DNA of 64,000 bases from Anaeromyxobacter sp. (lineage in GTDB: Bacteria > Myxococcota > Myxococcia > Myxococcales > Anaeromyxobacteraceae), in assembly GCA_049840735.1 (NCBI GenBank), contig JASGJN010000022.1, forward strand, positions 672,001-736,000, written 5' to 3'. Under the pieces are notes generated by a model. The model was not told the DNA's origin and did not search any database. It saw nothing but the letters and a program-made list of their open reading frames with translations. Shown piece by piece: positions 11,001-25,327 of the stretch (its first letter is position 1; each line of letters begins with the position of its first letter). A program made the position numbers and the translations under genes.

Positions 11001-12348
11001 ATGGACCCCGGCCTCGGCCCCCTCGAGTTCATCAAGCGGCCGCCGCGCAGCGCGGCGGTGCTGTTCGGCGTATTCACGCTGGTCGCGGTCGCAGGCGTGG
11101 CCTGGACGGGCAGCCACTTCCGGACCGCCCAGGACGCGCCGGCATTCCTGGGGAGCCTGGTCGCTGCCGTCGCGCTCGGCACGCTCCTGTGGATTGGCGG
11201 GTTCCACCTCCTGGCGCTTCCACCGCGACGGCGTGGTGGCGCGGCGGATGGGGAAGACCACCGTGCTGCGCTACTCGGACGTGATTGCGTACGCCTACCA
11301 GGAGCTCGAGGGCGGCGTGCGGCTGCCGGACGTCTGGGCGATGACGCTCCACGGCCGCCGCGGCGAGCGGGTCCAGGTCCGGGTGCAGCCGGACCTGAAG
11401 CGCGAGCTGGAGCTGCCGGCGCTCCACGCTCGGCTCCTCCCGACGCTGGTGGCGCAGCTGCGCAACCTCTCGCCCGAGGGGCTGGAGTGGGGGCCGCTGC
11501 GGCTGCGGCGCGAGGGGCTGCGGCTGCCGGATGGCCGAATCGTGGCCTACGGCCCGGAGCTGGGCACACGCAGCGCGACGTCGGCCGGAGGGCGCGGGCT
11601 GGAGGTGCTGTTCCGCGGGCAGCCGGTGGCGACGCTCGAGCCTGGCACGCTCAACCTGCACCTGGGCTTCGAGCTGCTGCGGGAGCGGGTGTCGGGGCGG
11701 GCCGCCCAGGACGTGGCGCCGCGCGCGACCGCGGAGGCCAGCGCCGCGCGAACGGCCAAGGACGTCCGCGAGCGGCAGCTGGGCTGGGTGCTGGCCGTCT
11801 TCTTCCTGGTCGCGACGGTCGGGGAGGGCGCGCTGTACGTGAGCACGCAGCGCGAGCTGCGCGCGCTGGGCGAGGCCCCACGGCCGATGACCGTCGCGGA
11901 GGCGGCCCAGCTCGGCGAGGATCTGCAGTGGGTGGAGCTCTCCGAGGGGCTGGAGGTGAGGTGCGATCAAGGGCTCCAGAAGTCGAGCCAGGGCTCGGTG
12001 CTGGACACCAGCTACCTCGCCAGCGACGAAGCGGGCGCGCGCTGGTTCTACGTGAAGCTCAAGGGCGAGGCGTCCTGCGAGCAGGCCAGCGCCCCTGGCC
12101 TGGTCGGGCTCGCGAAGCGGGCGTCGTCCGGGCTGCCGGACTGGCTGAGGAAGCGCGGGCTCGCGGTCGAGCCCGGGGTCCAGCAGCTCGTGGAGCTGGA
12201 GGTGGACGGCGGACCGGAGACGGTCGGGCGGGGCCTCTGGATCTACGGCGGGGGAGCGGGGTTCTTCGCCCTGCTCCTGGGCTTCTCGATCTACGTGATC
12301 GTCTCGCGCCGCCCGCGCCCGGCAGCAGGCGGGCGCGCCCGAGCCTAG
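11001..12348 (+). CDS. Hypothetical multi-pass membrane protein; frameshift near 11215
   Basis: Two TM helices in the ORF 11001 frame continue into ORF 11194..12348, which has two more TM helices. Confidence 0.55.
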
Positions 12349-12760
12349 GAGCTGTCCCGAAATTCGAGCTTGAGGTTGTAGAGGAAGGCCACGGCGGCGA
12401 CCGTGGATCCGAGGTGTCGCCCCGCCGCCGGTGGTCCCGGAGGACGCGCCAGTCTTTGAGGCGAGCGAGGACGTGCTCGACCCGGGCGCGCTGTTTGCGG
12501 TGACGGCGCCAGGCGGCGTCGCGGACGATCCGGTTGTGACGGAAGACCGGGATGCGGAGGCCTCGGACTCCCCGGTATCCGCCATCGGCGAGGACGACAC
12601 GGTGGCCTCGGCAGAGCGCCTCGACGGCGGAGCCGCGGAAGTGGACGGGGTCGTTCCGATTGCCCGGGCCACCGGCGGAAGTGTCAAGGACGCGACAATC
12701 GCGGCTCCGCACCAGCACCTGGGCGTTACATGACCAGCGGAAGTTCTTGGAATTCGCTGC
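12345..12760 (-). pseudogene. IS5-family transposase C-terminal remnant
   Basis: SKNFRWSCNAQVLV, GNRND, VLADGGYRG, HRKQRARVEHVLARLKDWRVLRDHRRRG; ends FRDSS* after a frameshift; N-terminus missing. Confidence 0.8.
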
Positions 12761-12850
12761 GCGGGCGGGCTCTCGGGAGCAGCGGGTGGGTCGGGAGAGC
12801 GTGGGCGGGGATCACCTTCGACCCACGAACGCCTTGGGCGCGCCAATCCA

Positions 12851-12866
12851 CTGAACAAGATGTCAG
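12851..12866. promoter_or_regulatory. Candidate LexA-type box upstream of TnpB-like fragment
   Basis: CTGAACAAGATGTCAG is CTG-N10-CAG; its reverse complement ends GTTCAG, like the myxobacterial LexA motif as I recall it. Confidence 0.3.
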
Positions 12867-12913
12867 GGCCTGGGTTCACGATGAGCGGGTGAGCGCGTCT
12901 GCCAAGCGAACCC

Positions 12914-13357
12914 GTGGTCCGAAACCGGCAGCGCCCTTGGACCCGCCGGCCCGAGGACGGGGTGTCGGTGCTCCGGCTCGCACTGGACCTCCACGACCCG
13001 GTGCAGCGACGACGGCTCGAAGGGATCTTCTCCGGGGCCTACCAGGTCCGGCGAGCGCTCCAGCGGACGGCGCGGGACCGGGTGCGGGCCTACTGGGCGG
13101 CCACGAAGGCACGGGACCGGAGTGCCTCCGAGACCCGGGCCAGGCTCGGCCTCTCGCGCGAGGCGCTGGAGCAGGCGGCCTACGCCCACCTCGACGCGGC
13201 GCCCCACCTCCGACGGAACGTCACCAAGGCGCTGGCGATGCACCTCGCCGACTCGGTCTGGACGCCGGTGGAGCGCCACCTGTTCCCGGACACGAAAGGC
13301 AAGCGGCAGGGACTTCTCCGCGTCGGGCGCTGGTTCGACTTCTCACGGCTTCCTGGC
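12914..13357 (+). pseudogene. N-terminal fragment (~148 aa) of a large TnpB-like / type V-U-like protein; no RuvC
   Basis: VSVLRLALD...VRRALQR...YWAA...RLGLSREALE...TKALAMHLADSVW..VERHLF.D..GKRQG..RVGRWFDFSRLPG resembles the N-terminus of TnpB-related 'transposases'; similarity stops at the IS right end. Confidence 0.55.
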
Positions 13358-14482: not shown

Positions 14483-14518
14483 GAGCGGCCTTCAACTGCC
14501 TCGGCGCTCAGGGCCTGG

Positions 14519-14566
14519 GCTTCGACTCCGCGAGCCCTGCGGGCTCGCTACGCTCAGCCCGAACGG
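14519..14566 (+). repeat. REP-like element with internal hairpin, at the head of the tandem array
   Basis: CTTCGACTCCG-[CGAGCCCTGCGGGCTCG]-CTACGCTCAGCCCGAACGG. Confidence 0.75.
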
Positions 14567-15033
14567 TGTTGGCAAGGTCGGCCTTCCACGGCTCTTCTGC
14601 AGGCTCAGCCCGAACGGTGTTGGCAAGGTCGGCCTTCCACGGCTCTTCTGCAGGCTCAGCCCGAACGGTGTTGGCAAGGTCGGCCTTCCACGGCTCTTCT
14701 GCAGGCTCAGCCCGAACGGTGTTGGCAAGGTCGGCGTTCCACGGCACTTCTGCAGGCTCAGCCCGAACGGTGTTGGCAAGGTCGGCCTTCCACGGCACTT
14801 CTGCAGGCTCAGCCCGAACGGTGCTGGCAAGGTCGGCCTTCCCGGCTCTTCGGCAGGCTGAGCCCGAACGGTGTTGGCAAGGTCGGCCTTCCACGGCACT
14901 TCTGCAGGCTCAGCCCGAACGGTGTTGGCAAGGTCGGCGTTCCACGGCACTTCGGCAGGCTGAGCCCGAACGGTGTTGGCAAGGTCGGCCTTCCACGGCT
15001 CTTCGGCAGGCTCAGCCCGAACGGTGTTGGCAA
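14552..15033 (+). repeat. Tandem array of about 9.5 x 51-bp units
   Basis: Unit GCTCAGCCCGAACGGTGTTGGCAAGGTCGGCCTTCCACGGCTCTTCTGCAG starting at 14552, 14603, 14654, 14705, 14756, 14807 (50 bp), 14857, 14908, 14959 and 15010 (partial). Confidence 0.95.
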
Positions 15034-15110
15034 AGACCGGCCTCCCCACGCCCTTCGGTCGGCTCGGGTCGCACGGGGTTCCACGGCGGGTGCAGCCCCG
15101 CCGCCGTTCC

Positions 15111-15575: not shown

Positions 15576-16932
15576 TCAGCCCTTCCAGCCCGCCTGCACC
15601 ACCACCACGTTGGCGCTGCCCTCCACGCTGCCCACCAGCCGGTCGCCGGTGGCGCCGGGCTGGTCGATGTGCGAGGTGCCCAGCATCTGCACCCGCTGGT
15701 ACACGGCGCCGAGGGAGAAGCCCTTGCCGAAGGAGGCCTTGCCGCCGGCGCCCACCAGGAGCGAGTCGCGCTCGGGCAGCGTGGCCTGGCGGTACTTGTC
15801 GGTGATGGGGCTCTGCTCGTAGGCGGCGCCGCCGAACAGGTCCAGCCAGGGCTTCGCCGCCCAGATGGCGCCCAGCGAAGCGCGGAAGGCGTTCCGGAAG
15901 CCCTGCTTCGACTGGACGTCGAGCCCGTTGGCCGGGTCGTCCGGCTTGAGCTCCACCGTGTCGAAGCGGCCCCAGGTCGTGTACTGGAAGGCGGCGTCGA
16001 GCGTCACGCCGTGGCCCAGCGCCTGCTCGGCGCTGACGGTGAGGAAGTCGGGGAAGGGGAGGTCCACCGACGAGCCGGGCTCGCCGGTGAACCCGAGCAC
16101 GGCCAGCGCGGCGGGGTCGAAGCTCTGGTGCCCCTTCACGTGCCCCTCGCTCTCGTGCCGGTAGGCCACGCCGAGGGTGGTGCCGGCGGCGGGCTGGAAG
16201 GTGAGGCCGGCGGTGATCGTCCAGCCCCAGCCGTCGCCGGTGAAGCGGGCGTAGCCGTCCGAGCCGCCGGGCGTGAGCCCCTGGCCGGCGCAGGTGCCGA
16301 GGGGATCGGGATCGCCGGCCCCGGCCGCCTGGGCCACGCAGATGGAGCCCAGGTCCAGCGCCTGCCCGATGGTGGCGTGGTCGCGCCGCGCGGCCGCGCT
16401 CACGCCGACGGCGAAGCGCGGGTCGATGCGCCAGGCCAGGGCCGGGCCGAAGGAGAGGGCGGTGATCTCCCGACTCGACCCCCTGGTAGCGGCCGTAGAA
16501 GCCGGCGTCGCGGCCGTAGTCGGTGGCCTGGCCGAAGGGCGCGGCCACGAAGAGCCCCAGCGCCAGCTGCGGCGAGAGCCGGTGGGAGGCGAAGAGCCAG
16601 GGGGAGCCGCCGGTGCCGGCGCCGTCGGCGTTCGCGCCCGGCAGCGGCATGCCGCCCTCCAGCAGCGTGGAGCCGCCGTCGGTGTAGGGGGCGGAGGCGG
16701 CGATGAGCTGCCCGCCGACCACCACCTGCGTGCCGTCCAGCGACGCCAGGATGGCTGGGTTGGCGAACAGGCCGGCCGGGTCGCGGGTGGAGGCCGCGGC
16801 CGCGCTGGCGGTGCCGTTGGAGTAGAGCCCCTGGATGTCGAGGGCGAAGCCGTTGGCCCGGGCGGCGGCCGGCGCGAGCAGCGCCACGGCGAGGAGCAGG
16901 GAGCAACGGAGCGAGGCCGTGCGCTGGTGCAT
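15576..16932 (-). CDS. fadL: OmpP1/FadL/TodX-family outer-membrane channel for hydrophobic molecules; frameshift near 16470
   Basis: Signal peptide, then NGFAL...G.A.A.....D......NPA hatch motif, APFG..TDY, P.LAWRI, YEQSP...RQATLP. Confidence 0.88.
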
Positions 16933-16996
16933 GGCGAGTCCTCTCGTCGGCGGCGCCGCCGGGTCATGCCGGCGGGGCGGTGCCCGTTGGACCCGA

Positions 16997-17029
16997 AGGC
17001 TAGAGGGTCAATCTGTACAACGTCAAGAT
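16997..17029 (-). promoter_or_regulatory. fadL promoter with TetR-type operator
   Basis: Minus strand TTGACG-N18-TAGCCT; overlapping imperfect palindrome ATCTGTACAACGTCAAGAT (17011-17029). Confidence 0.6.
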
Positions 17030-17688
17030 GACCGGTCGGAGCGTGGGGTCTTCCGGCCCCGGGGGCGCGCCCGGCGGGCGGGCGGCTCCGGCTCGCCGCA
17101 CAGCTGCGAGGCCAGGGCCGCCTGCAGCAGCTGCCGGGGCGGGGTGCGGGCCAGGATCGTGTGTGGGATCTGGCGGTTGGTGAGGAGCGAGACCAGGCCG
17201 TGGGTCACCGACCAGAGCCCCACCGCCACCGTCTCGGGCGGCCCGGCCGCCACCACGCCCGCCGCCTGGCAGCCGCGCACCAGGTCCACCAGCGCCTCGA
17301 AGCTGCCGTTCGCCATGGTCATGTAGTCCGGGTGATCGTGCTCCTGCTCCATGGCGTTGGAGAAGGTCACCCGGTAGAGGTCGGGCTGCTCCAGCCCGAA
17401 GCGGACCGTCTCCCAGGCGGCCTCCTGCAGCTGCCGGCGCGGGTCGCCGGCGTGCTTGCGGACCGCCCCGGCGATCCGCTCGCGCACGACCCGGAGCCCC
17501 TCGGTGGAGATGGCCGCCACCAGCGCCTCCTTGTCGGGGAAGTGCGCGTACGGGGCCGAGTGGCTGACGCCGGCGCGGGCGGCCACCCGCCGGAGGGTCA
17601 GGCTCCCCACTCCCTCGTGGGCCAGCAGCTCCGCGCCGGCGCGGATCAGCGCGTTCTTGAGGTCACCGTGGTGGTACGGCTTCCGCAT
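17023..17688 (-). CDS. TetR/AcrR-family regulator (YHHGDL N-terminus, WHG-type C-domain)
   Basis: YHHGDLKNALI, LTLRRVAARAGVSHSAPYAHFPDKEAL HTH, WSVTHGL. Confidence 0.95.
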   Translation of the reverse strand: MRKPYHHGDLKNALIRAGAELLAHEGVGSLTLRRVAARAGVSHSAPYAHFPDKEALVAAISTEGLRVVRERIAGAVRKHAGDPRRQLQEAAWETVRFGLEQPDLYRVTFSNAMEQEHDHPDYMTMANGSFEALVDLVRGCQAAGVVAAGPPETVAVGLWSVTHGLVSLLTNRQIPHTILARTPPRQLLQAALASQLCGEPEPPARRARPRGRKTPRSDRSS

Positions 17689-17702
17689 GGGTCGCTCCGC
17701 CG

Positions 17703-17751
17703 ATATTGACAGTGTCTAGATCGTTCTCTAACGTCCAGACCACGTCAACCT
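17703..17751 (+). promoter_or_regulatory. Sigma-70 promoter and two TetR-type operator copies in the divergent tetR/aldolase intergenic region
   Basis: TTGACA(17706)-N17-TAACGT(17729); palindrome ATATTGACAGTGTCTAGAT (17703-17721) and degenerate GTCCAGACCACGTCAACCT (17733-17751). Confidence 0.7.
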
Positions 17752-17765
17752 ACCGCGGGGAGCGC

Positions 17766-18451
17766 ATGCCGTCCATGGTCCCGAGAGGCTGCAGGTGGTG
17801 GAGGCCGCCCGGCGCCTGTCCGCCAGGGGTTACCTGGTGGCCACCGGCGGGAACCTGTCGGTCCGCCTGCCGGGCCAGGCCGCCTTCGCCATCACCCCCA
17901 CCAACCTCGACTACGGCCAGATGACCGCCGAGGACGTCTGCGTCCTCGACCTCTCGCTGACGAAGCTGGCCGGCGAGCGGGTGCCCTCCATCGAGAGCTC
18001 GCTCCACGCCGCCATCTACCAGGCGCGCCCGGACGTGAACGCGGTGGTCCACACGCACCAGGCCTACGCCAGCGCGCTGGCCCTGATCGACGCGCCCATC
18101 CCCGCGCTCTTCGACGAGCAGGTCCGCTTCCTGGGGCGCTCGGTCGAGATCGTCTCCTACGGCCCCTCCGGAACCGGCGTGCTGCGCCGCGCCGTCGCGC
18201 GCGCGGTCCGCAGCCACGCCAACGCCTACATCATGAAGAACCACGGCGCCGTCTGCCTGGGAACGGACCTGACCCGCGCCGAGAACAACGTCGAGCTGCT
18301 GGAGAAGTGCGCCCTCGCCTACCTCCTGGCGCTCTGCACCGAGCGGAAGGTCAGCAGGATCCCGCTGGTCGTCCGCGAGGTGGCCTTCCACAAGCTCCGC
18401 TCCGACCAGCGCCAGGCCGAGGCGGAGGCGCAGTCCCGAGGCACGCCGTGA
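17766..18451 (+). CDS. Class II aldolase/adducin family (L-fuculose-1-phosphate aldolase-like); probable 1-bp loss just after the ATG
   Basis: GGNLSVR, ITP, PSIESSLHAAIY.ARPD..AVVHTH, NHG (catalytic Glu and Zn-His triad); GGGGAG RBS before ATG 17766; in-frame GTG at 17795. Confidence 0.88.
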
Positions 18452-19941
18452 CCAAAGCCCCCGCCCTGGCCTCCGCGGACGCCGCGGCCTCGGCCGCGCA
18501 GCGCTACGCCATCTCCAGCTACCACGACACCGACGAGGTCTACGCCCGGCTGAAGGAGCTGATCCGCCAGCCGCCCCGGCCGCTCCGGCGGGAGCGGATG
18601 CAGCAGGTGCTGGAGCACTTCGAGACCCGCCTGGCCGGTTCGCGCCGCCTCTCGGACGAGGCCAAGCGCTACATCCCGGGCGGCGTGCAGCACAACCTGG
18701 CCTTCAACCACCCGTTCCCGCTGGCCGTGGCGCGCGCCGAGGGGGCGCACCTCTGGGACGTGGACGGGAACCGCTACATCGACTTCCTCCAGGCGGGCGG
18801 GCCCACCGTGCTGGGCTCCAACCACGAGCCGGTCCGGCGCCAGGTGATCGAGCTGCTGGAGCGCTGCGGGCCGGTCACCGGCCTGCTGCACGAGTACGAG
18901 GCGAAGCTGGCCGCGCTGGTGCAGCGCTTCATGCCCTCCATCGAGCTGTTCCGGATGCTGGGCTCGGGCACCGAGGCGGTGATGGCCGCCGTCCGCGCCG
19001 CGCGCGCCTTCACCGGCAGGAAGAAGATCATCAAGGTGGGCGGCGCCTACCACGGCTGGAGCGACCAGCTGGTCTACGGCCTCCACGTGCCCGGCACCGG
19101 GCGGCTGGAGGCGGCCGGCATCCCGCGGGCCGCCAGCCGGCACACGCAGGAGTTCTTCCCCAACGACCTGGGCGCGCTGCGCCGCAAGCTCCGGCTCAAC
19201 CGGCTGCGCGGCGGGACCGCGGCGGTGATCCTCGAGCCGCTGGGGCCGGAGAGCGGCACGCGGCCGGTCCCGGCGGACTTCAACCGCGAGGTGCGCGCGC
19301 TCTGCGACGAGTTCGGCGCCCTGCTCATCTTCGACGAGGTGGTCACCGGCTTCCGCGTCGGCCTGGGCGGCGCGCAGGGCTACTTCGGCGTGAAGCCCGA
19401 CCTGACCGTCTTCGGCAAGTGCATCAGCGGCGGCTATCCCATGGCCGGCGGCGTCGGCGGCCGCAAGGACGTGATGCTCCGCTTCGCGGCGGGGATCGGC
19501 GGCATCGGCGAGCGCGCGTACGTGGGCGGCACCCTCTCGGCCAACCCGCTCTCCTGCGTGGCCGGGTACCACGCGCTGCTGGAGATGGAGCGGCTGGACG
19601 CGCCGGTGGTGGCGGGGCGCGCCGGCGACCGGCTCACGCGCGGCTTGCAGGAGATCATCGAGCGGAGGAAGCTGCCCTACGTGGCCTACAACCAGGGCTC
19701 CATCGTCCACCTCGAGACCTCGGGCGTCATGCTGCTGGACCTCCGCAACCCGCTCAAGCTGGCGCGCGAGCTCAAGCCGCGGAAGCACATGCTGGAGGAG
19801 ATGGGGGCGGCCTACCTGGCGGCGGGGCTGGTCACGCTGGCCGGCAGCCGCATGTACACCAGCATCGCCGACACCGACGCGGTGATCGACGACGCGCTGG
19901 GCCGCTTCGACGAGGTGCTCTCCGGCGTCGAGGGCGCCTAG
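18448..19941 (+). CDS. Class III PLP aminotransferase, glutamate-1-semialdehyde aminomutase (HemL)-like
   Basis: IPGGV, WDVDGNRYIDF, SGTEAVM.AVR.AR, YHGWSD, LIFDEVVTGFR, DLTVFGK, GGTLSANP; GTGA overlap with the aldolase. Confidence 0.92.
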   Translation: MTKAPALASADAAASAAQRYAISSYHDTDEVYARLKELIRQPPRPLRRERMQQVLEHFETRLAGSRRLSDEAKRYIPGGVQHNLAFNHPFPLAVARAEGAHLWDVDGNRYIDFLQAGGPTVLGSNHEPVRRQVIELLERCGPVTGLLHEYEAKLAALVQRFMPSIELFRMLGSGTEAVMAAVRAARAFTGRKKIIKVGGAYHGWSDQLVYGLHVPGTGRLEAAGIPRAASRHTQEFFPNDLGALRRKLRLNRLRGGTAAVILEPLGPESGTRPVPADFNREVRALCDEFGALLIFDEVVTGFRVGLGGAQGYFGVKPDLTVFGKCISGGYPMAGGVGGRKDVMLRFAAGIGGIGERAYVGGTLSANPLSCVAGYHALLEMERLDAPVVAGRAGDRLTRGLQEIIERRKLPYVAYNQGSIVHLETSGVMLLDLRNPLKLARELKPRKHMLEEMGAAYLAAGLVTLAGSRMYTSIADTDAVIDDALGRFDEVLSGVEGA

Positions 19942-19944
19942 CGC

Positions 19945-21542
19945 GTGGCCGCCCGGCGCGTCACGCTGGCGCTCGACCTGGGCACCTCCGGCGTGAAGGT
20001 CGCGCTGGTGGACCAGGACGGCGCCGTCCTCGGCTTCGAGGGCGTGCCGGTCGAGACCCACGTCACGCCGGACGGCGGCGCCGAGCAGGCGCCGGAGGAC
20101 TGGTGGCGCGGGTTCCTGGAGGCCTCGCGCCGGCTCCTGGCGCGCGGGCTCTGCGCGCGCGGCGAGGTGGCCGCAGTCTGCTGCTCCACCCAGGGCGAGG
20201 GCACGGTGCCGGTCGACCGCGACGGCCAGCCCCTGATGCGCTGCATCCTCTGGATGGACATGCGCGGCGCCGGGCCGCTGGCCCGGCAGTTCCGCGGCCG
20301 GCTCAACCTGGCCGGCGCCTCGGCCTGGCGCGTGCTGCGCTGGATCCGCCTCACCGGCGGGATGCCCTCCATGACCGGCAAGGACCCCGCCGGCCACATG
20401 CTGCTGGTGCGCGACCGCTTCCCCGAGGTCTACGCCCGCACCCACAAGTTCCTGAACGTCCTCGACTACCTCAACCTGCGGCTCACCGGCCGCTACGTGG
20501 CCACCCACGACTCCATCCTCACCTCCTGGGTGACCGACAACCGCGACCCCGACCGGATCCGCTACCACCCGGCGCTGCTGCGGGGCTGCGGCATCGACGC
20601 CGACAAGCTGCCGGAGATCGTCCCCTGCACCGCCGCGCTGGGGCCGCTGCGCCGCGAGGTGGCGGACGCGCTGGGGCTGTCCGCGGAGGTGCAGGTGGTG
20701 GCCGGCGCCATCGACAACACCGCCGCCGCCGTCGGCTCCGGCGCGGTAGCCGACCGGGCGCTGCACCTCTACCTGGGCACGTCCACCTGGATGGCCGCCC
20801 ACGTCCCCTGGAAGAAGACCGACCTGGGGAGCGCGCTGGCCTCGGTCCCCTGCGCCCTGCCCGGGCGCTGGCTCCTCACCGCCCTGCAGGCCACCGGCGG
20901 CGGCAACCTGGCCTTCCTGCGCGACCGGATCCTCTATCACCGCGACGCGCTGCTGCAGGAGGCGGGCGTCCCGGACGTCTTCAAGATCATGGACCGGATG
21001 GCGGCCGAGGTGCCGGCCGGCGCCAACGGCGTCCTCTACACGCCCTGGATTCTGGGGCGAGCGCGCGCCGGTGGAGGACCGGACGCTGCGCGCCGGCATC
21101 CTCAACCTCTCGCTGGGCAACGACCGCGCCGACCTGGTGCGCGCCTTCCTGGAGGGCGTGGCCCTCAACTCGCGCTGGCTCCTGGGGCCGGTGCAGCGCT
21201 TCCTGGGCGGGCGGGTGGAGCGGCTGCGGCTGGCCGGCGGCGGCGCCGCGTCCGACGTCTGGTGCCGAGATCTACGCCGACGTGCTGGGCGCCGAGGTGG
21301 ACCAGGTGGAGGACCCGGTGCAGGCCAACGCCCGCGGCGCCGGCCTCATCGCCGCCGCCGGGCTGGGCTGGCTGGACCTGCGCGAGGCCGGGGCGCGCGT
21401 GCCGGTCCGGCGGACCTACGCGCCCACCGCGGCGCACCGCGCCGTCTACGACGAGCGCTACGCGGTCTTCGTGGACGCCTACCGCCGCCTGCGCGGCCTC
21501 TACCGCCGGCTCAACGCCCGGCCAGCCCCCCCGGAGCCCTGA
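19945..21542 (+). CDS. FGGY-family carbohydrate kinase (xylulokinase-like); frameshifts near 21055 and 21265
   Basis: LDLGTSGVK, EQ.PEDWW, ILWMDMR, LGTSTW, GERAP, RAFLEGVA, GGGAASDVW; pieces in three frames ending at TGA 21542. Confidence 0.88.
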
Positions 21543-22761
21543 TGGCCACCGCCGTCCTCGCCGCGCCGGCCTACCCGCGTTACCGGTTCGTGGTGCTGGC
21601 GGTGTTCATGCTGGTCAACCTGACCATCCAGATCCTCTGGAGCTCGTACGCCACCATCACCGGGCTGGCGGCGCGCTTCCACGGGGTGAGCGATCTCGCC
21701 ATCGGCCTGCTGGGGATGGTCTTCATGATCGCCTTCGTGCCGCTCTCCTTCCCGGTCTCGTGGGCCATCGACCGCTTCGGCTTCCACCGCACCGTCGGGC
21801 TGGGCACCGTCCTCATGTCGGCGTTCGGCCTGCTGCGCGGGCTGGCCGGCGCCAGCTACCCGCTGGTGCTGGTGGGCTCCATCGGCATCGCCGCGGCGCA
21901 GCCCTTCCTGCTCAACGCCTGGACCACCGTGCCGGCGCGCTGGTTCCCGCCGCAGGAGCGGGCCACCGCGGTGGGCCTGGTGACCTTCGCCAACCTGGTG
22001 GGCACCGGCATCGGCTTCGCCCTCACGCCGGCGCTGGTGGCCCGCGCCTCCATCCCCTCGGTGCAGCTGCTCTACGGCGCCATCGCCGCGGTCTCGGCGC
22101 TGCTCTTCCTGGCGCTGGCCCGCGAGGCGCCGGCCGGCCAGGCCGGCCCGCTGGCGCCGGAGGCGCGGGCGCTGATGCTGGACGGGATCCGCCACGCCTT
22201 CTCGGTTCCGTCCTTCCGGCGCTACCTGGCGGTCTCGTTCGTGGGCATGGGCGTGTTCAACGGGCTGGCGCTCTGGATCGAGCCCATCATCCGGCCGCGC
22301 GGCTTCGGGGAGGAGCAGGCCGGGACGCTGGGCGCGGTCATGCTGGTGGGCGGGGTGGTGGGGGCGGTGGTGATCCCGCCATCTCCGACCGGCTCCGCCG
22401 GCGCAGGGTGTTCATCCTGGGCGGCATGGCGCTGGCCATCCCCGGCCTGCTGGGGCTGGCCTGGGCCACGACGCTGGCGGGGCTCCTGGCCGCGGTCTTC
22501 GGCCTGGGCTTCTTCCTGGTGGCCACCAGCCCGGTGGGCATGCAGTACGCCACCGAGATCACCCGGCCCACGCCGGAGGGGACCTCCAACGGCGTGGTGC
22601 AGCTGGCCGGCCAGCTCTCGGTGGTGTTCGTCTACGTGATGGAGGCGCTGCGCGGCGCGGACGGCTCCTTCACGCTGTCGCTGGTGCTGTCCGCCGCCGC
22701 GCTGGGGCTCTGCGCCCTGGCCGCCACCCGGCTCGTGGATCCACCCCGCGAGCCCAGCTGA
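21542..22761 (+). CDS. MFS transporter resembling the FLVCR/SLC49 family; frameshift near 22380
   Basis: YRFVVL.VF...N...QILW..YA.I, V.M...VP.SFP.SW.ID.FG, AQPFLLN.....ARWFP..ERATA; many TM helices; TGATG overlap with the kinase. Confidence 0.85.
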
Positions 22762-22773
22762 GCTGGAGACGCC

Positions 22774-23685
22774 ATGCGCCCGAGCCTGCCCCGGCCGACC
22801 CTCGCCCTGCTCCTGGCGGCGCTGCACCTCGCGCCGGCCCCCGCCGTCGCCGAGGAGGCGCAGGCGCCCCAGGGGCAGCACTGCATGGGCGAGCCGCGGA
22901 GCCGGGTCCTGCTCTCCAGCACGCTGGTGGCGCAGTCCGAGCCCATGGGGCTGGAGGAGCAGCTGCAGCTCGGCGCCTGCCGGCCGCTGCTGCGCACGCC
23001 GGGGATCCTCTTCGACCACACCAACGTGCAGGCCGGGCTGATCGTCTACGCCTCGCCGGTCTACGCCTTCCCCGGCGCCTTCGTCTCCATCGCGCCGCTC
23101 TCGGTGCTGGAGCTGCGCGCCGAGGCGGCGCCGTTCTGGGTCTGGCCCCTCGGCCTGGACGGCGCCGGCTACTTCCCGCGCGGCAGCGCGGACGAGCAGT
23201 TCGAGGACCTGCCCGCCGAGCAGGCGGAGTCGGCCAGCGGCTGGACCGCGACCTTCACCGGCACGCTGCAGGCCGAGGTGGAGCTGGCGCCGGGGCTCAC
23301 GCTCGCGGCGGTGGACGTGCTGTCCTGGTCCTTCTGGGACGTGGGGGACGCGCCCTACTACTACCACCCGCGCTACGACTTCACCTTGGCGCGGGAGGAC
23401 TGGGTGGGGAAGAACCAGGCCTTCCTGCTGGTGGGCCACCGGTTCTCGCCGACGCTGGTGGTGCGGGCCGGCGTGAACGACGAGTGGATGGGCTCGGCCC
23501 GGGCCGGGATCACCCAGAACATCCTGGCCGCAGCGCTGACCGCCGACGTGGCCGGCTGGCCGCGCCGGGGCGACCTCCTGCAGCCGTTCCTGCGCGTGGG
23601 CGGCTTCACCCACCACGAGTTCCGCACCGGGCTGGCCGTGCTGGGCGGCGTGGGGGTGACCTGGGACGTGACGCCCGGGCGGTGA
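22774..23685 (+). CDS. Exported hypothetical protein, possibly an outer-membrane beta-barrel; last gene of the operon
   Basis: GGAG RBS, 12-bp gap after MFS, signal peptide, aromatic-rich alternating strands, C-terminal GVGVTWD. Confidence 0.65.
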   Translation: MRPSLPRPTLALLLAALHLAPAPAVAEEAQAPQGQHCMGEPRSRVLLSSTLVAQSEPMGLEEQLQLGACRPLLRTPGILFDHTNVQAGLIVYASPVYAFPGAFVSIAPLSVLELRAEAAPFWVWPLGLDGAGYFPRGSADEQFEDLPAEQAESASGWTATFTGTLQAEVELAPGLTLAAVDVLSWSFWDVGDAPYYYHPRYDFTLAREDWVGKNQAFLLVGHRFSPTLVVRAGVNDEWMGSARAGITQNILAAALTADVAGWPRRGDLLQPFLRVGGFTHHEFRTGLAVLGGVGVTWDVTPGR

Positions 23686-23805: not shown

Positions 23806-25155
23806 CTACAGCGGGATGGCCTTCCCGTTCACCTCGAGCGCACCCTTGGTGAAGCGCAGCTTGCTCTTCACCACCGCGCCGTCGCGCACCACGAAGCCGC
23901 GCGACACGGCCTCGTCGATGAGGCGGTCGGCCGCCTCGGGGTCGGCGGGCACGCCGGCCTCCTCGGCCTTGCTGGCCGAGATCTTCTGCACCCAGGCCAC
24001 CGGGACCACCGCGTCGGCGGTGACCGTGGCCTTGGAGATCAGGGCCATGGGCGGCTGGCCGCCGTCCTCCTCGGTCACGCCCTTCACGGCGGCGTCGAAG
24101 GAGAACTCGCCCTGCTGGCCGTCGATCACCACCACCAGCTTGTCCACGGCGTAGTGCGGCTCGCGGGACAGCAGCTTCAGCAGGTCGGGCTGGATGGCCT
24201 CGAACAGCTCGCCGGGGCCGGACGCATTCTCCCGCTCGGAGAGCGCCGCCGAGAGCTTCTTGTAGGTGACCGCGTCCACCCGGTCGATCGAGAGGTGCAG
24301 CTCCACCTTGTCGATTCGAGAGGTCGTTCACGCGGCCGCTGCCGGTGAAGCTGCTCTGGCTGGCCAGCAGCCCATCCTCGATCACGTTCTTGAACCCGAA
24401 CTCGAGGTCCTTGAAGGCCACCGCGGTGCCCTTGGTGGGTGCCGCCTCCGGATCGAACGGCGAGGCCTTGGCCGGCTCGCTGAAGTCGAACAGCTCAAGC
24501 TCGCCCTCGCCCTGGCCCGCGCCCAGGTAGTCCTGGCCGGTGGGCTCCGAGACGAGGTGGAGCTTGAAGCCGCGCAGCGTGGCGCGGCCGCCGCCGTGCT
24601 CGGCGAACTCGAACCCGGGGACCGCGACGGTGTACTCGATCGGATGGCCGAGGCCGCGCCCGTGGAACTCGCCGGTGATCCCGTCCCACTTCAGGCGATC
24701 GCCGTCCTTGTCGTAGACGAAGGCAGGGCTGTCCAGGTGGGCGGTGAAGTGGCCGGTCAGGCCCACCACGGTGCGCAGGGTGAGCGGGGACTTCTCGCCC
24801 ATCACCTCGGTCACCTTCTCCTTCACCTCGTCCGGCACCACCAGCTCGGTTCCACCACCGCGCGCCCCAGCGTGCGGAACCCAGGCAGCGGCCCGTTCAG
24901 GATCCGGCTCCGGAAGGTGATGGCGGGGGAGCCGTCGGCCGCCTTCTGGTAGCGGACGGTGACGGTGGAGGTCGAGCTGAGGAAGCCGCGCTCGAACCCG
25001 CTCTCCTCGATGATCAGCCCCGGCACCTCCTCCTGCAGCTTGTCCAGCTCGGCGGTGAGCCCGCGCTCGATGGACCTGCTCATGTACAGCGTGGTGGAGA
25101 GCCAGGCCAGGGCCAGGAACGCCACCACGGCCCCTGCGACGACGATCTTCTTCAC
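23806..25155 (-). CDS. YdgA/DUF945-family protein; frameshifts near 24848 and 24320
   Basis: GAGGGGGAG RBS; KKIVVAG + TM, ERGFLSS, I.NGPLP, C-terminal G.LEVNGKAIPL. Confidence 0.75.
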
Positions 25156-25327
25156 GTACTCCCCCTCGAGCGCGGCGCGCTCCCGGTGTGGATAGGGGGG
25201 AGAGTCTAGCCCGCCGCGGCGAGCCCCGAGGCGACGCCGGTCAGGCGCAGGTGCGGCGGTTTGTCCTGTGTCGGAGGGACGCCGGCCACGGGCGCACCGG
25301 GATCGCGGACGCACGGTCCGGATCCGC

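Follow-up and report, generated by a model that had tools for sequence, protein, structure and literature searches.

What would a bacterium degrade with an operon that places sugar-type enzymes beside an aminotransferase, a TetR repressor and a FadL-family outer-membrane channel? The question is raised by a locus at positions 15576..23685 of a 64-kb stretch of Anaeromyxobacter sp. DNA (G000:C22:672001-736000), which we call the window. The locus is a real, conserved and apparently uncharacterized catabolic cassette. From gene content, conservation, catalytic residues, operator sites and neighbors we infer its substrate, step order and products: the substrate is probably a sphingoid base, and the sequence evidence as a whole leans toward a TetR-controlled operon that would import such a base, most probably phytosphingosine, and break it down to dihydroxyacetone phosphate (DHAP) and pentadecanal.

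A conserved cassette with FucA-type and class III PLP enzymes

The operon core runs on the + strand from the aldolase through the aminotransferase, an FGGY kinase and an FLVCR-like major facilitator superfamily (MFS) transporter to a 303-aa exported protein. Divergent from these genes, tetR and fadL lie on the - strand, with fadL 90 bp downstream of tetR (Table 1). Pfam matches over the locus are Toluene_X/FadL, TetR_N with TetR_C_33, Aldolase_II, Aminotran_3, FGGY_N/C and MFS_1. The aldolase end and aminotransferase start overlap in GTGA, 3 bp separate the aminotransferase from the kinase, the kinase stop and MFS start share TGATG (21540-21544) and 12 bp precede the gene for the exported protein; gene calls and Pfam thus bear out the content and junctions that an earlier note, made from the sequence alone, had described. 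Scans for sigma-70 promoters and terminators returned none at the locus.

Relatives of the aminotransferase (55-80% identity) number at least 591 in the genome collection and at least 589 in metagenomes, of which the best 80 each were kept. Using the aminotransferase we collected 178 loci, counting near-duplicates and short contigs; 12 were re-called for genes, and Pfam was scanned for family representatives and near neighbors among 2052 called genes. The kinase is present in 125 loci, the aldolase in 136, TetR in 82 and an FLVCR-type MFS in 31, and because partner genes recur in this way, their grouping is not due to chance. The aminotransferase occurs in Chloroflexota, Pseudomonadota, Actinomycetota, Bacillota, Acidobacteriota, Spirochaetota, Planctomycetota and one Asgard archaeon, with a patchy distribution (4/301 genomes of the window's phylum, 16/301 of a Pseudomonas genus, 11/301 Actinomycetota and 8/161 Anaerolineae).

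The aminotransferase scores 173 bits against PF00202 (cut-off 30.5) and has a DEV motif, with the pyridoxal phosphate (PLP) lysine K324 and D296 invariant. Its model adopts the fold of glutamate-1-semialdehyde aminomutase (GSAM) and D-PhgAT (pLDDT 88; TM 0.79 to D-PhgAT), with a predicted extra N-terminal helix. Residues Q81/H82/N83/L84 are invariant in 92/92 sequences. The C-terminal R468 is also invariant, which would fit binding of a 2-oxo-acid partner. Profile searches place the enzyme in a tight family well apart from HemL-like proteins, and by sequence this is a distinct, uncharacterized family of class III PLP enzymes.

The probable start codon of the aldolase is ATG 17765; the resulting 228 aa match the length of its homologues, and its nearest solved structure is FucA. 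E77, H96, H98 and H160 are kept at 93-99% in 73 aldolase sequences; in FucA numbering, and by alignment to 4c24, they are the three zinc histidines and catalytic glutamate of the FucA type. FucA-type models score 112-114 bits versus 86 for MtnB, and scores stay below the L-fuculose-phosphate aldolase equivalog cut-offs (112 versus 264 and 79 versus 400 bits). The gene is fused to the aminotransferase in 14 of the 136 aldolase-bearing loci. Many loci have a second aldolase copy, whose metal motifs are gone in 36/36; the window has no second copy.

Like human FLVCR1/FLVCR2 (SLC49), the only PDB matches of the MFS transporter (E 7e-31), bacterial MFS of this type keep the equivalents of W125 (30/30), Q214 (30/30) and Q471 (26/30). 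Unlike the human proteins, they have Asn at Y349 in 30/30.

Kinases of the same clade adjoin sphingosine-1-phosphate lyases

The kinase scores 161 bits against the XylB model TIGR01312 (cut-off 380; first 372 residues of the frameshifted gene only) and 59 bits against the FucK model, and is therefore closer to XylB. The intact kinase of its congeners matches xylulokinase 2itm (E 3e-40) and falls outside the XylB-like outgroup. An insert absent from xylulokinase has a median net charge of +5 (background 0, 95th percentile +4) and is predicted to fold as a helix. Phylogenies came from quick IQ-TREE and FastTree runs. The window-type clade of 25 rows (FastTree support 100) holds the congener kinases together with kinases adjacent to sphingosine-1-phosphate (S1P) lyases, and IQ-TREE gave a 33-row clade of lyase-paired and window-type kinases (SH-aLRT 100).

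In a test not seeded with the cassette, S1P lyase homologues were sought in 301 Actinomycetota genomes, with a kinase within 1.5 kb. A homologue is present in 22 of the 301, and in nine of these 22 (L252-L256, L261-L264; eight without the unpublished genome G744) an FGGY kinase directly adjoins it. All nine kinases, 36-48% identical to the congener kinase, belong to the window-type clade (support 100), and the aminotransferase is found in none of the nine genomes. Because the same kinase clade pairs with S1P lyase, whose substrate is a base-1-phosphate that retains its amine (PMC6148460, partial text), the window-type FGGY clade most plausibly phosphorylates an amino base, which would place the kinase before the aminotransferase. 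This reverses the earlier note, in which transamination came first. The available part of PMC5234717 mentions no kinase beside the lyase, and two inspected plasmid lyase-like matches (34-40%) have no FGGY neighbor. An apparent co-occurrence of lyase and aminotransferase in Actinomycetota (4/10 versus 18/290) was dropped; three of the four aminotransferases are no more than 44-47% identical and lie in other contexts.

Sphingolipid-degrading genes beside the cassette

Neighbors linked to sphingolipid degradation occur at ten of the 178 loci: a ceramidase, sphBCD, an S1P lyase or an endoglycoceramidase-like glycoside hydrolase 5 (GH5) gene. Four Pseudomonas loci among them are one lineage, and the others add at least five further associations; by simple arithmetic, the chance that a gene present once in a 5-Mb genome lies in a given 20-kb stretch is about 0.4%. 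A ceramidase is found in L186 and L187 (E 3e-180), and genes resembling sphB/C/D with an SphR-like AraC regulator in L185, L187 and L188, the P. aeruginosa gene set being described in PMC3900636. The arrangement is clearest in G064, where ceramidase, DUF1329, DUF1302, TetR, kinase, aldolase, aminotransferase and a dead aldolase are followed by an SphR-like AraC and then sphD-, sphC- and sphB-like genes. G303 has this sph island but not the cassette, whose position in G064 is between DUF1302 and AraC. Across that Pseudomonas genus a ceramidase occurs in 5/301 genomes, and it lies within 9 kb of the aminotransferase in both that also carry the latter.

An S1P lyase follows the kinase in L109 (E 2e-205 to 3MAD) and is also present in L013; L073 encodes kinase, S1P lyase, aldehyde dehydrogenase (ALDH), aminotransferase and aldolase in a single co-directional run. 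In L114, a GH5 gene similar to endoglycoceramidase II (E 3e-79) lies 14 bp upstream of the aldolase, and weaker GH5 relatives flank L030, L085 and, as found later, L293. A survey of aminotransferase neighborhoods, the check proposed in the earlier note, thus finds ceramidase at two loci and one type of ALDH in 19 of 178 (at least 260 bits). DUF962, which is linked to yeast Mpo1 of phytosphingosine breakdown, is encoded at L108 and L189 and beside the cassette on a Burkholderia ambifaria plasmid. The long-chain-base class proposed earlier is strongly backed on comparative grounds by the adjoining sphingolipid and ALDH genes; the choice of phytosphingosine over sphingosine or sphinganine comes from aldolase chemistry only.

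In L227 (G303) and L185-L200, a DUF1302-DUF1329 pair lies divergent from the SphR-like AraC gene and upstream of the ceramidase. At the corresponding place P. aeruginosa encodes the porin SphA, so the pair may be an alternative system for sphingoid uptake. GH30 includes glucosylceramidases, and in L160, L162 and L163 a GH30 hydrolase and an MFS_2 gene are convergent with a Bacillota-type cassette; these were not counted as markers. An alanine-racemase-fold gene beside L022/L023-type clusters was considered as SphD and rejected as a marker (24-25% identity to the SphD-like protein of the sph island).

A predicted TetR operator links fadL to the cassette

The palindrome ATCTTGAC-N3-GTCAAGAT is present in the stretch examined of 14 of 15 other loci. 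An operator model trained on the tetR-aldolase intergenic regions of these 15 loci, with the window left out, returned as its two top matches in the 6.67-Mb genome the sites at 17703 and at 17011, the latter 79 bp ahead of where fadL starts; the third-ranking site reaches 16.2. Five shuffled genomes contained zero sites at 19 bits, and in four relatives that lack the cassette no site near the FadL orthologues exceeded 8.5. Because a predicted operator stands before fadL, the channel is, by its upstream sequence, placed under the cassette's TetR repressor in this organism.

This FadL is a third, divergent paralogue with about 25% identity to the housekeeping FadLs; its two pieces score 42 and 117 bits against PF03349 (cut-off 29.7), and it reaches 58 bits against the FadL equivalog model (cut-off 585). 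The earlier note had counted FadL as part of the system and proposed a survey of its co-occurrence with the aminotransferase. The predicted operator agrees with the former here, but fadL is present in none of the 178 loci, making it a local recruit. The gene for the 303-aa exported protein is likewise found in 0/178 and is not a conserved member; its neighbors in the protein Atlas are mostly from Myxococcota. Other outer-membrane barrels are common in the related loci (Gcw/TorF in 19 and DUF1302 in 8 of the 178). SphR regulation is not seen: the window has TetR and a palindromic operator, not an AraC-type SphR with direct repeats, and scanning the SphR half-site consensus over the 178 related loci gave scattered matches only.

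A different predicted Myxococcota barrel of 266 aa follows the MFS gene in both congeners (L165:6196-6996, L166:13522-14319), and the same barrel follows the FadL orthologue of cassette-free G013 (L245:10292-11092).

A proposed route to DHAP and pentadecanal

FadL, perhaps with the 303-aa barrel, would let a free sphingoid base through the outer membrane, and the FLVCR-like MFS would carry it across the inner membrane. The FGGY kinase would then phosphorylate C1, the aminotransferase would convert the C2 amine to a ketone, giving a (3R,4R) 2-keto-3,4-diol 1-phosphate, and the zinc aldolase would cleave C3-C4 in a retro-aldol reaction to DHAP and pentadecanal, the latter to be oxidized by an aldehyde dehydrogenase encoded elsewhere. 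The system could feed the cell, protect it from an antimicrobial lipid, or do both.

FucA cleaves the (3R,4R) D-ribulose and L-fuculose 1-phosphates. A Cahn-Ingold-Prelog check confirmed the stereochemical argument of the earlier note, that C2 oxidation of (2S,3S,4R)-phytosphingosine yields (3R,4R), the FucA configuration. Aldol cleavage requires a C4 hydroxyl, and because bases without it could not be split by this route, the logic of aldolase chemistry would favor phytosphingosine.

Beyond this locus, the balance tips slightly toward a widespread, undescribed exit route in which an FGGY sphingoid base kinase would feed either S1P lyase or transaminase plus zinc aldolase, with a RuBisCO-like variant for aldolase-resistant bases. 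The literature searched, mostly open-access and without supplements, gave no description of the cassette or of an FGGY sphingoid kinase; PMC9045371 concerns a Porphyromonas dihydrosphingosine kinase, and "FGGY" does not occur in its accessible part.

Several results weigh against the proposed reading. None of the four markers is present at 168 of the 178 loci, and 8 of the 10 marker loci belong to a sister subclade with about 70% aminotransferase identity. Within the subclade of the window itself, L013 is the one marker locus, and its lyase has a second kinase; six further Anaerolineae loci show no marker. Searches of the window genome found neither an S1P lyase nor an endoglycoceramidase nor a ceramidase of CerN type, but did return a weak ceramidase-domain match; a close orthologue of the cluster ALDH is likewise missing (31%). 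Ceramidase-domain matches in 161 Anaerolineae are weak and not enriched among carriers (1/8, versus 30/161 overall). The ceramidase family was found in none of five cassette genomes, where controls were silent too, and convincingly in none of five more; an endoglycoceramidase query found 0/5 in a search without a positive control. Because neither the window genome nor its closest Anaerolineae relatives convincingly encode any of these three enzymes (ceramidase, lyase, endoglycoceramidase), the system in this organism would have to rely on bases set free by others. The hydrophobic moment of the kinase insert is not above background; the modeled cationic insert could dock to a membrane, but its amphipathicity is unexceptional. 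The aldol route needs a C4 hydroxyl, yet several neighbors are known for sphingosine, and the Bacillota-rich kinase clades may have another substrate.

Alternative readings

The sphingosine-type neighbors such as sphBCD would be explained if a sphingoid base were handled by other chemistry, with transamination first or with an MtnB-like dehydration or isomerization of the 2-keto-1-phosphate, so that sphingosine and sphinganine would be degraded too. A RuBisCO-like protein beside the aminotransferase in L019, L087, L098, L119 and L293, mostly without the aldolase, fits a methionine-salvage-like intermediate, and most lyase-paired kinases lie outside the subclade that the cassette kinases make up. 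We nevertheless regard this as rather unlikely: the aldolase prefers FucA-type models over MtnB and keeps the FucA-type glutamate, and in L073 and L109 a single kinase serves both lyase and cassette.

The RuBisCO-like protein accompanies the aminotransferase in L294, L295 and L298 as well as in the five loci above, mostly with no aldolase and in several with a different kinase clade, and in L293 two GH5 genes follow. These loci could represent a variant route for the 2-keto-1-phosphate intermediate.

A soluble amino-polyol or amino-sugar alcohol is an improbable substrate, though the nearest solved structures, xylulokinase and FucA, would suit it. On that account the lipid neighbors would be confined to the sister subfamily, as the lack of lipid markers at most loci, including all those in two Bacillota-rich kinase clades among the 178, would allow. 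However, no sugar ATP-binding cassette transporter, phosphotransferase system or isomerase family recurs among the annotated clustered neighbors, the predicted operator links a FadL channel to this copy and the window kinase lies inside the lyase-paired clade.

Whatever the family does, this copy could be a decaying, dead operon. Of its genes, tetR, the aldolase, the aminotransferase and the 303-aa gene are intact, and four single-base frameshifts interrupt fadL, the kinase (twice) and the MFS gene. Four in about 7.2 kb exceeds the core-gene rate (0.6 expected; P ~0.003): core orthologues show 11 breaks in 135 kb and local core genes 2 in 42.5 kb (0.05-0.08 per kb). On the other side, all four lie at most 6 nt from GATC, or GATC with one extra base (GATTC/GAATC), and such sites are found at 15 of 20 background breaks elsewhere in the assembly (by-eye count; null 0.11 per event), three of the 15 within an Omp85/BamA-type gene on contig C13. 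Because these sites are shared with background breaks, the locus frameshifts are probably sequencing errors from a motif-linked base-calling fault. Furthermore, there are zero in-frame stops, the kinase is 58-81% identical to the intact congener kinases on both sides of its breaks, both predicted operators are retained and the cassette is intact in two congeners, G014 and G025 (79-80% aminotransferase identity). We consider a dead copy improbable.

Genome-wide, indels of G000 cluster at GATC sites, making frameshift findings in this genome suspect. The genome's top hemL match, on contig C21, is also in a shortened frame, and a DUF945 gene at window 23806-25314 is broken over several frames, probably by the same assembly error.

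Assimilation of ethanolamine or phosphoethanolamine, in which transamination would give glycolaldehyde (phosphate) for condensation with DHAP, is very improbable. FLVCR1/2 carry ethanolamine and choline (PMC11168923, partial text) and S1P lyase releases phosphoethanolamine (partial text of PMC6148460), but the kinase would be pointless beside a lyase already making phosphoethanolamine, ceramidase, endoglycoceramidase and sphBCD neighbors yield no ethanolamine, the FLVCR Y349 is replaced in bacterial MFS and a FadL channel is not needed. A glutamate-1-semialdehyde-type 2,1-aminomutase can practically be dismissed, since despite GSAM being the top sequence and fold match the enzyme reaches 288 bits against hemL TIGR00713 (cut-off 527), has VQHNLAF where GSAM has VNSPVRAF, so lacking the presumably carboxylate-binding Arg, and leaves a better hemL match elsewhere in the genome, on contig C21.

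Comparison with known systems

A sphingoid route would apply known sugar-catabolic logic to a lipid. As in L-fucose/D-arabinose catabolism by FucK and FucA, an FGGY kinase is combined with a zinc aldolase with FucA-type residues, and a (3R,4R) ketose-1-phosphate would be split to DHAP and an aldehyde. Unlike there, an aminotransferase takes the place of the isomerase, the kinase is closer to XylB than to FucK and carries the cationic insert, and an FLVCR-like MFS and FadL are found, with no sugar permease. The human transporters differ in that the cassette MFS is bacterial.

Sphingosine kinase and S1P lyase (in eukaryotes, with lyases of Symbiobacterium, Burkholderia and Legionella) likewise act by C1 phosphorylation and then C-C cleavage to a fatty aldehyde. 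However, the known kinases belong to the DAGK family (PMC6148460, in the part available), whereas the cassette kinase is FGGY, and the lyase cuts C2-C3 to phosphoethanolamine, whereas cleavage here is predicted at C3-C4, after deamination, to give DHAP. The SphR/SphA/SphBCD/CerN system of P. aeruginosa shares the proposed substrate class and the set of channel, regulator and catabolic genes, and Sph genes physically adjoin the cassette in three Pseudomonas-genus genomes. It differs in its AraC activator, in the lack of homology to the cassette enzymes and in SphBC being periplasmic and oxidative; according to PMC11398299, the compound that P. aeruginosa makes from sphingosine was not identified. 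FumI of Sphingopyxis fumonisin degradation is also a class III PLP enzyme that reportedly deaminates C2 of a sphingoid-like amino-polyol. It is distant from the cassette enzyme (E 3e-29). The FumI substrate lacks a C1 hydroxyl, and its breakdown thus involves neither a kinase nor an aldolase.

Among the long-chain bases of plants, phytosphingosine is the main one, and it is reported to inhibit plant-associated microbes (PMC8776846). The cassette likely lets bacteria import and split the sphingoid backbone of plant and fungal membrane lipids. If so, bacteria of soil, rhizosphere, sediment and gut would have a lyase-independent pathway that accounts for how an abundant lipid is turned over, supplies the kinase needed by bacterial S1P lyases and is a source of odd-chain fatty acids; it would also offer three testable enzymes and a ligand-responsive repressor with a defined operator.

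Table 1. Features of the locus, in window coordinates
Feature	Position	Strand	Observations
fadL, FadL-family outer-membrane channel	15576..16932	-	PF03349 on both pieces; frameshift ~16470
Predicted TetR operator upstream of fadL	17011..17029	.	19.9 bits, top site genome-wide
tetR, TetR-family repressor	17023..17688	-	TetR_N + TetR_C_33; 44-68% identity to TetRs of 15 related cassettes
Predicted TetR operator, tetR-aldolase intergenic	17703..17721	.	19.3 bits, genome's second-best site
Class II (Zn) aldolase, FucA-like	17765..18451	+	E77, H96, H98, H160 kept
Class III PLP aminotransferase, GSAM/D-PhgAT fold	18448..19941	+	Intact; K324 invariant
FGGY kinase, closest solved structure xylulokinase	19945..21542	+	Frameshifts ~21049, ~21269; cationic helical insert (predicted)
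FLVCR/SLC49-like MFS transporter	21542..22761	+	Frameshift ~22382; W125, Q214, N245, Q471 equivalents kept, Y349 to Asn
Exported 303-aa protein, no Pfam family	22774..23685	+	Predicted outer-membrane beta-barrel, Myxococcota family

Further observations

The metal-less second aldolase follows the aminotransferase in many diderm loci (L022-L024, L085, L099-L103, L185-L200) and in Bacillota is apparently fused as a tandem second domain; it is probably a structural subunit. A rhizosphere Burkholderia ambifaria carries the cassette on a conjugative plasmid (L248, NZ_CP152372.1), where IS5 and Tn3 elements surround it and a TorF porin, ALDH and DUF962 accompany it. Ten Bacillota-type loci have a transketolase block next to them, encoded on the other strand, and an HAD phosphatase beside the congeners' cassette, considered as a member, is a core gene at the insertion site.

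Around the locus, about 9.6-25.3 kb of the window has no orthologue in the congener stretches tested and looks accessory. To the left, open reading frame translations show apparent transposase-like fragments at 12059-13300, judged by eye, and an array of ~39-bp head-to-tail repeats at 14490-15080.

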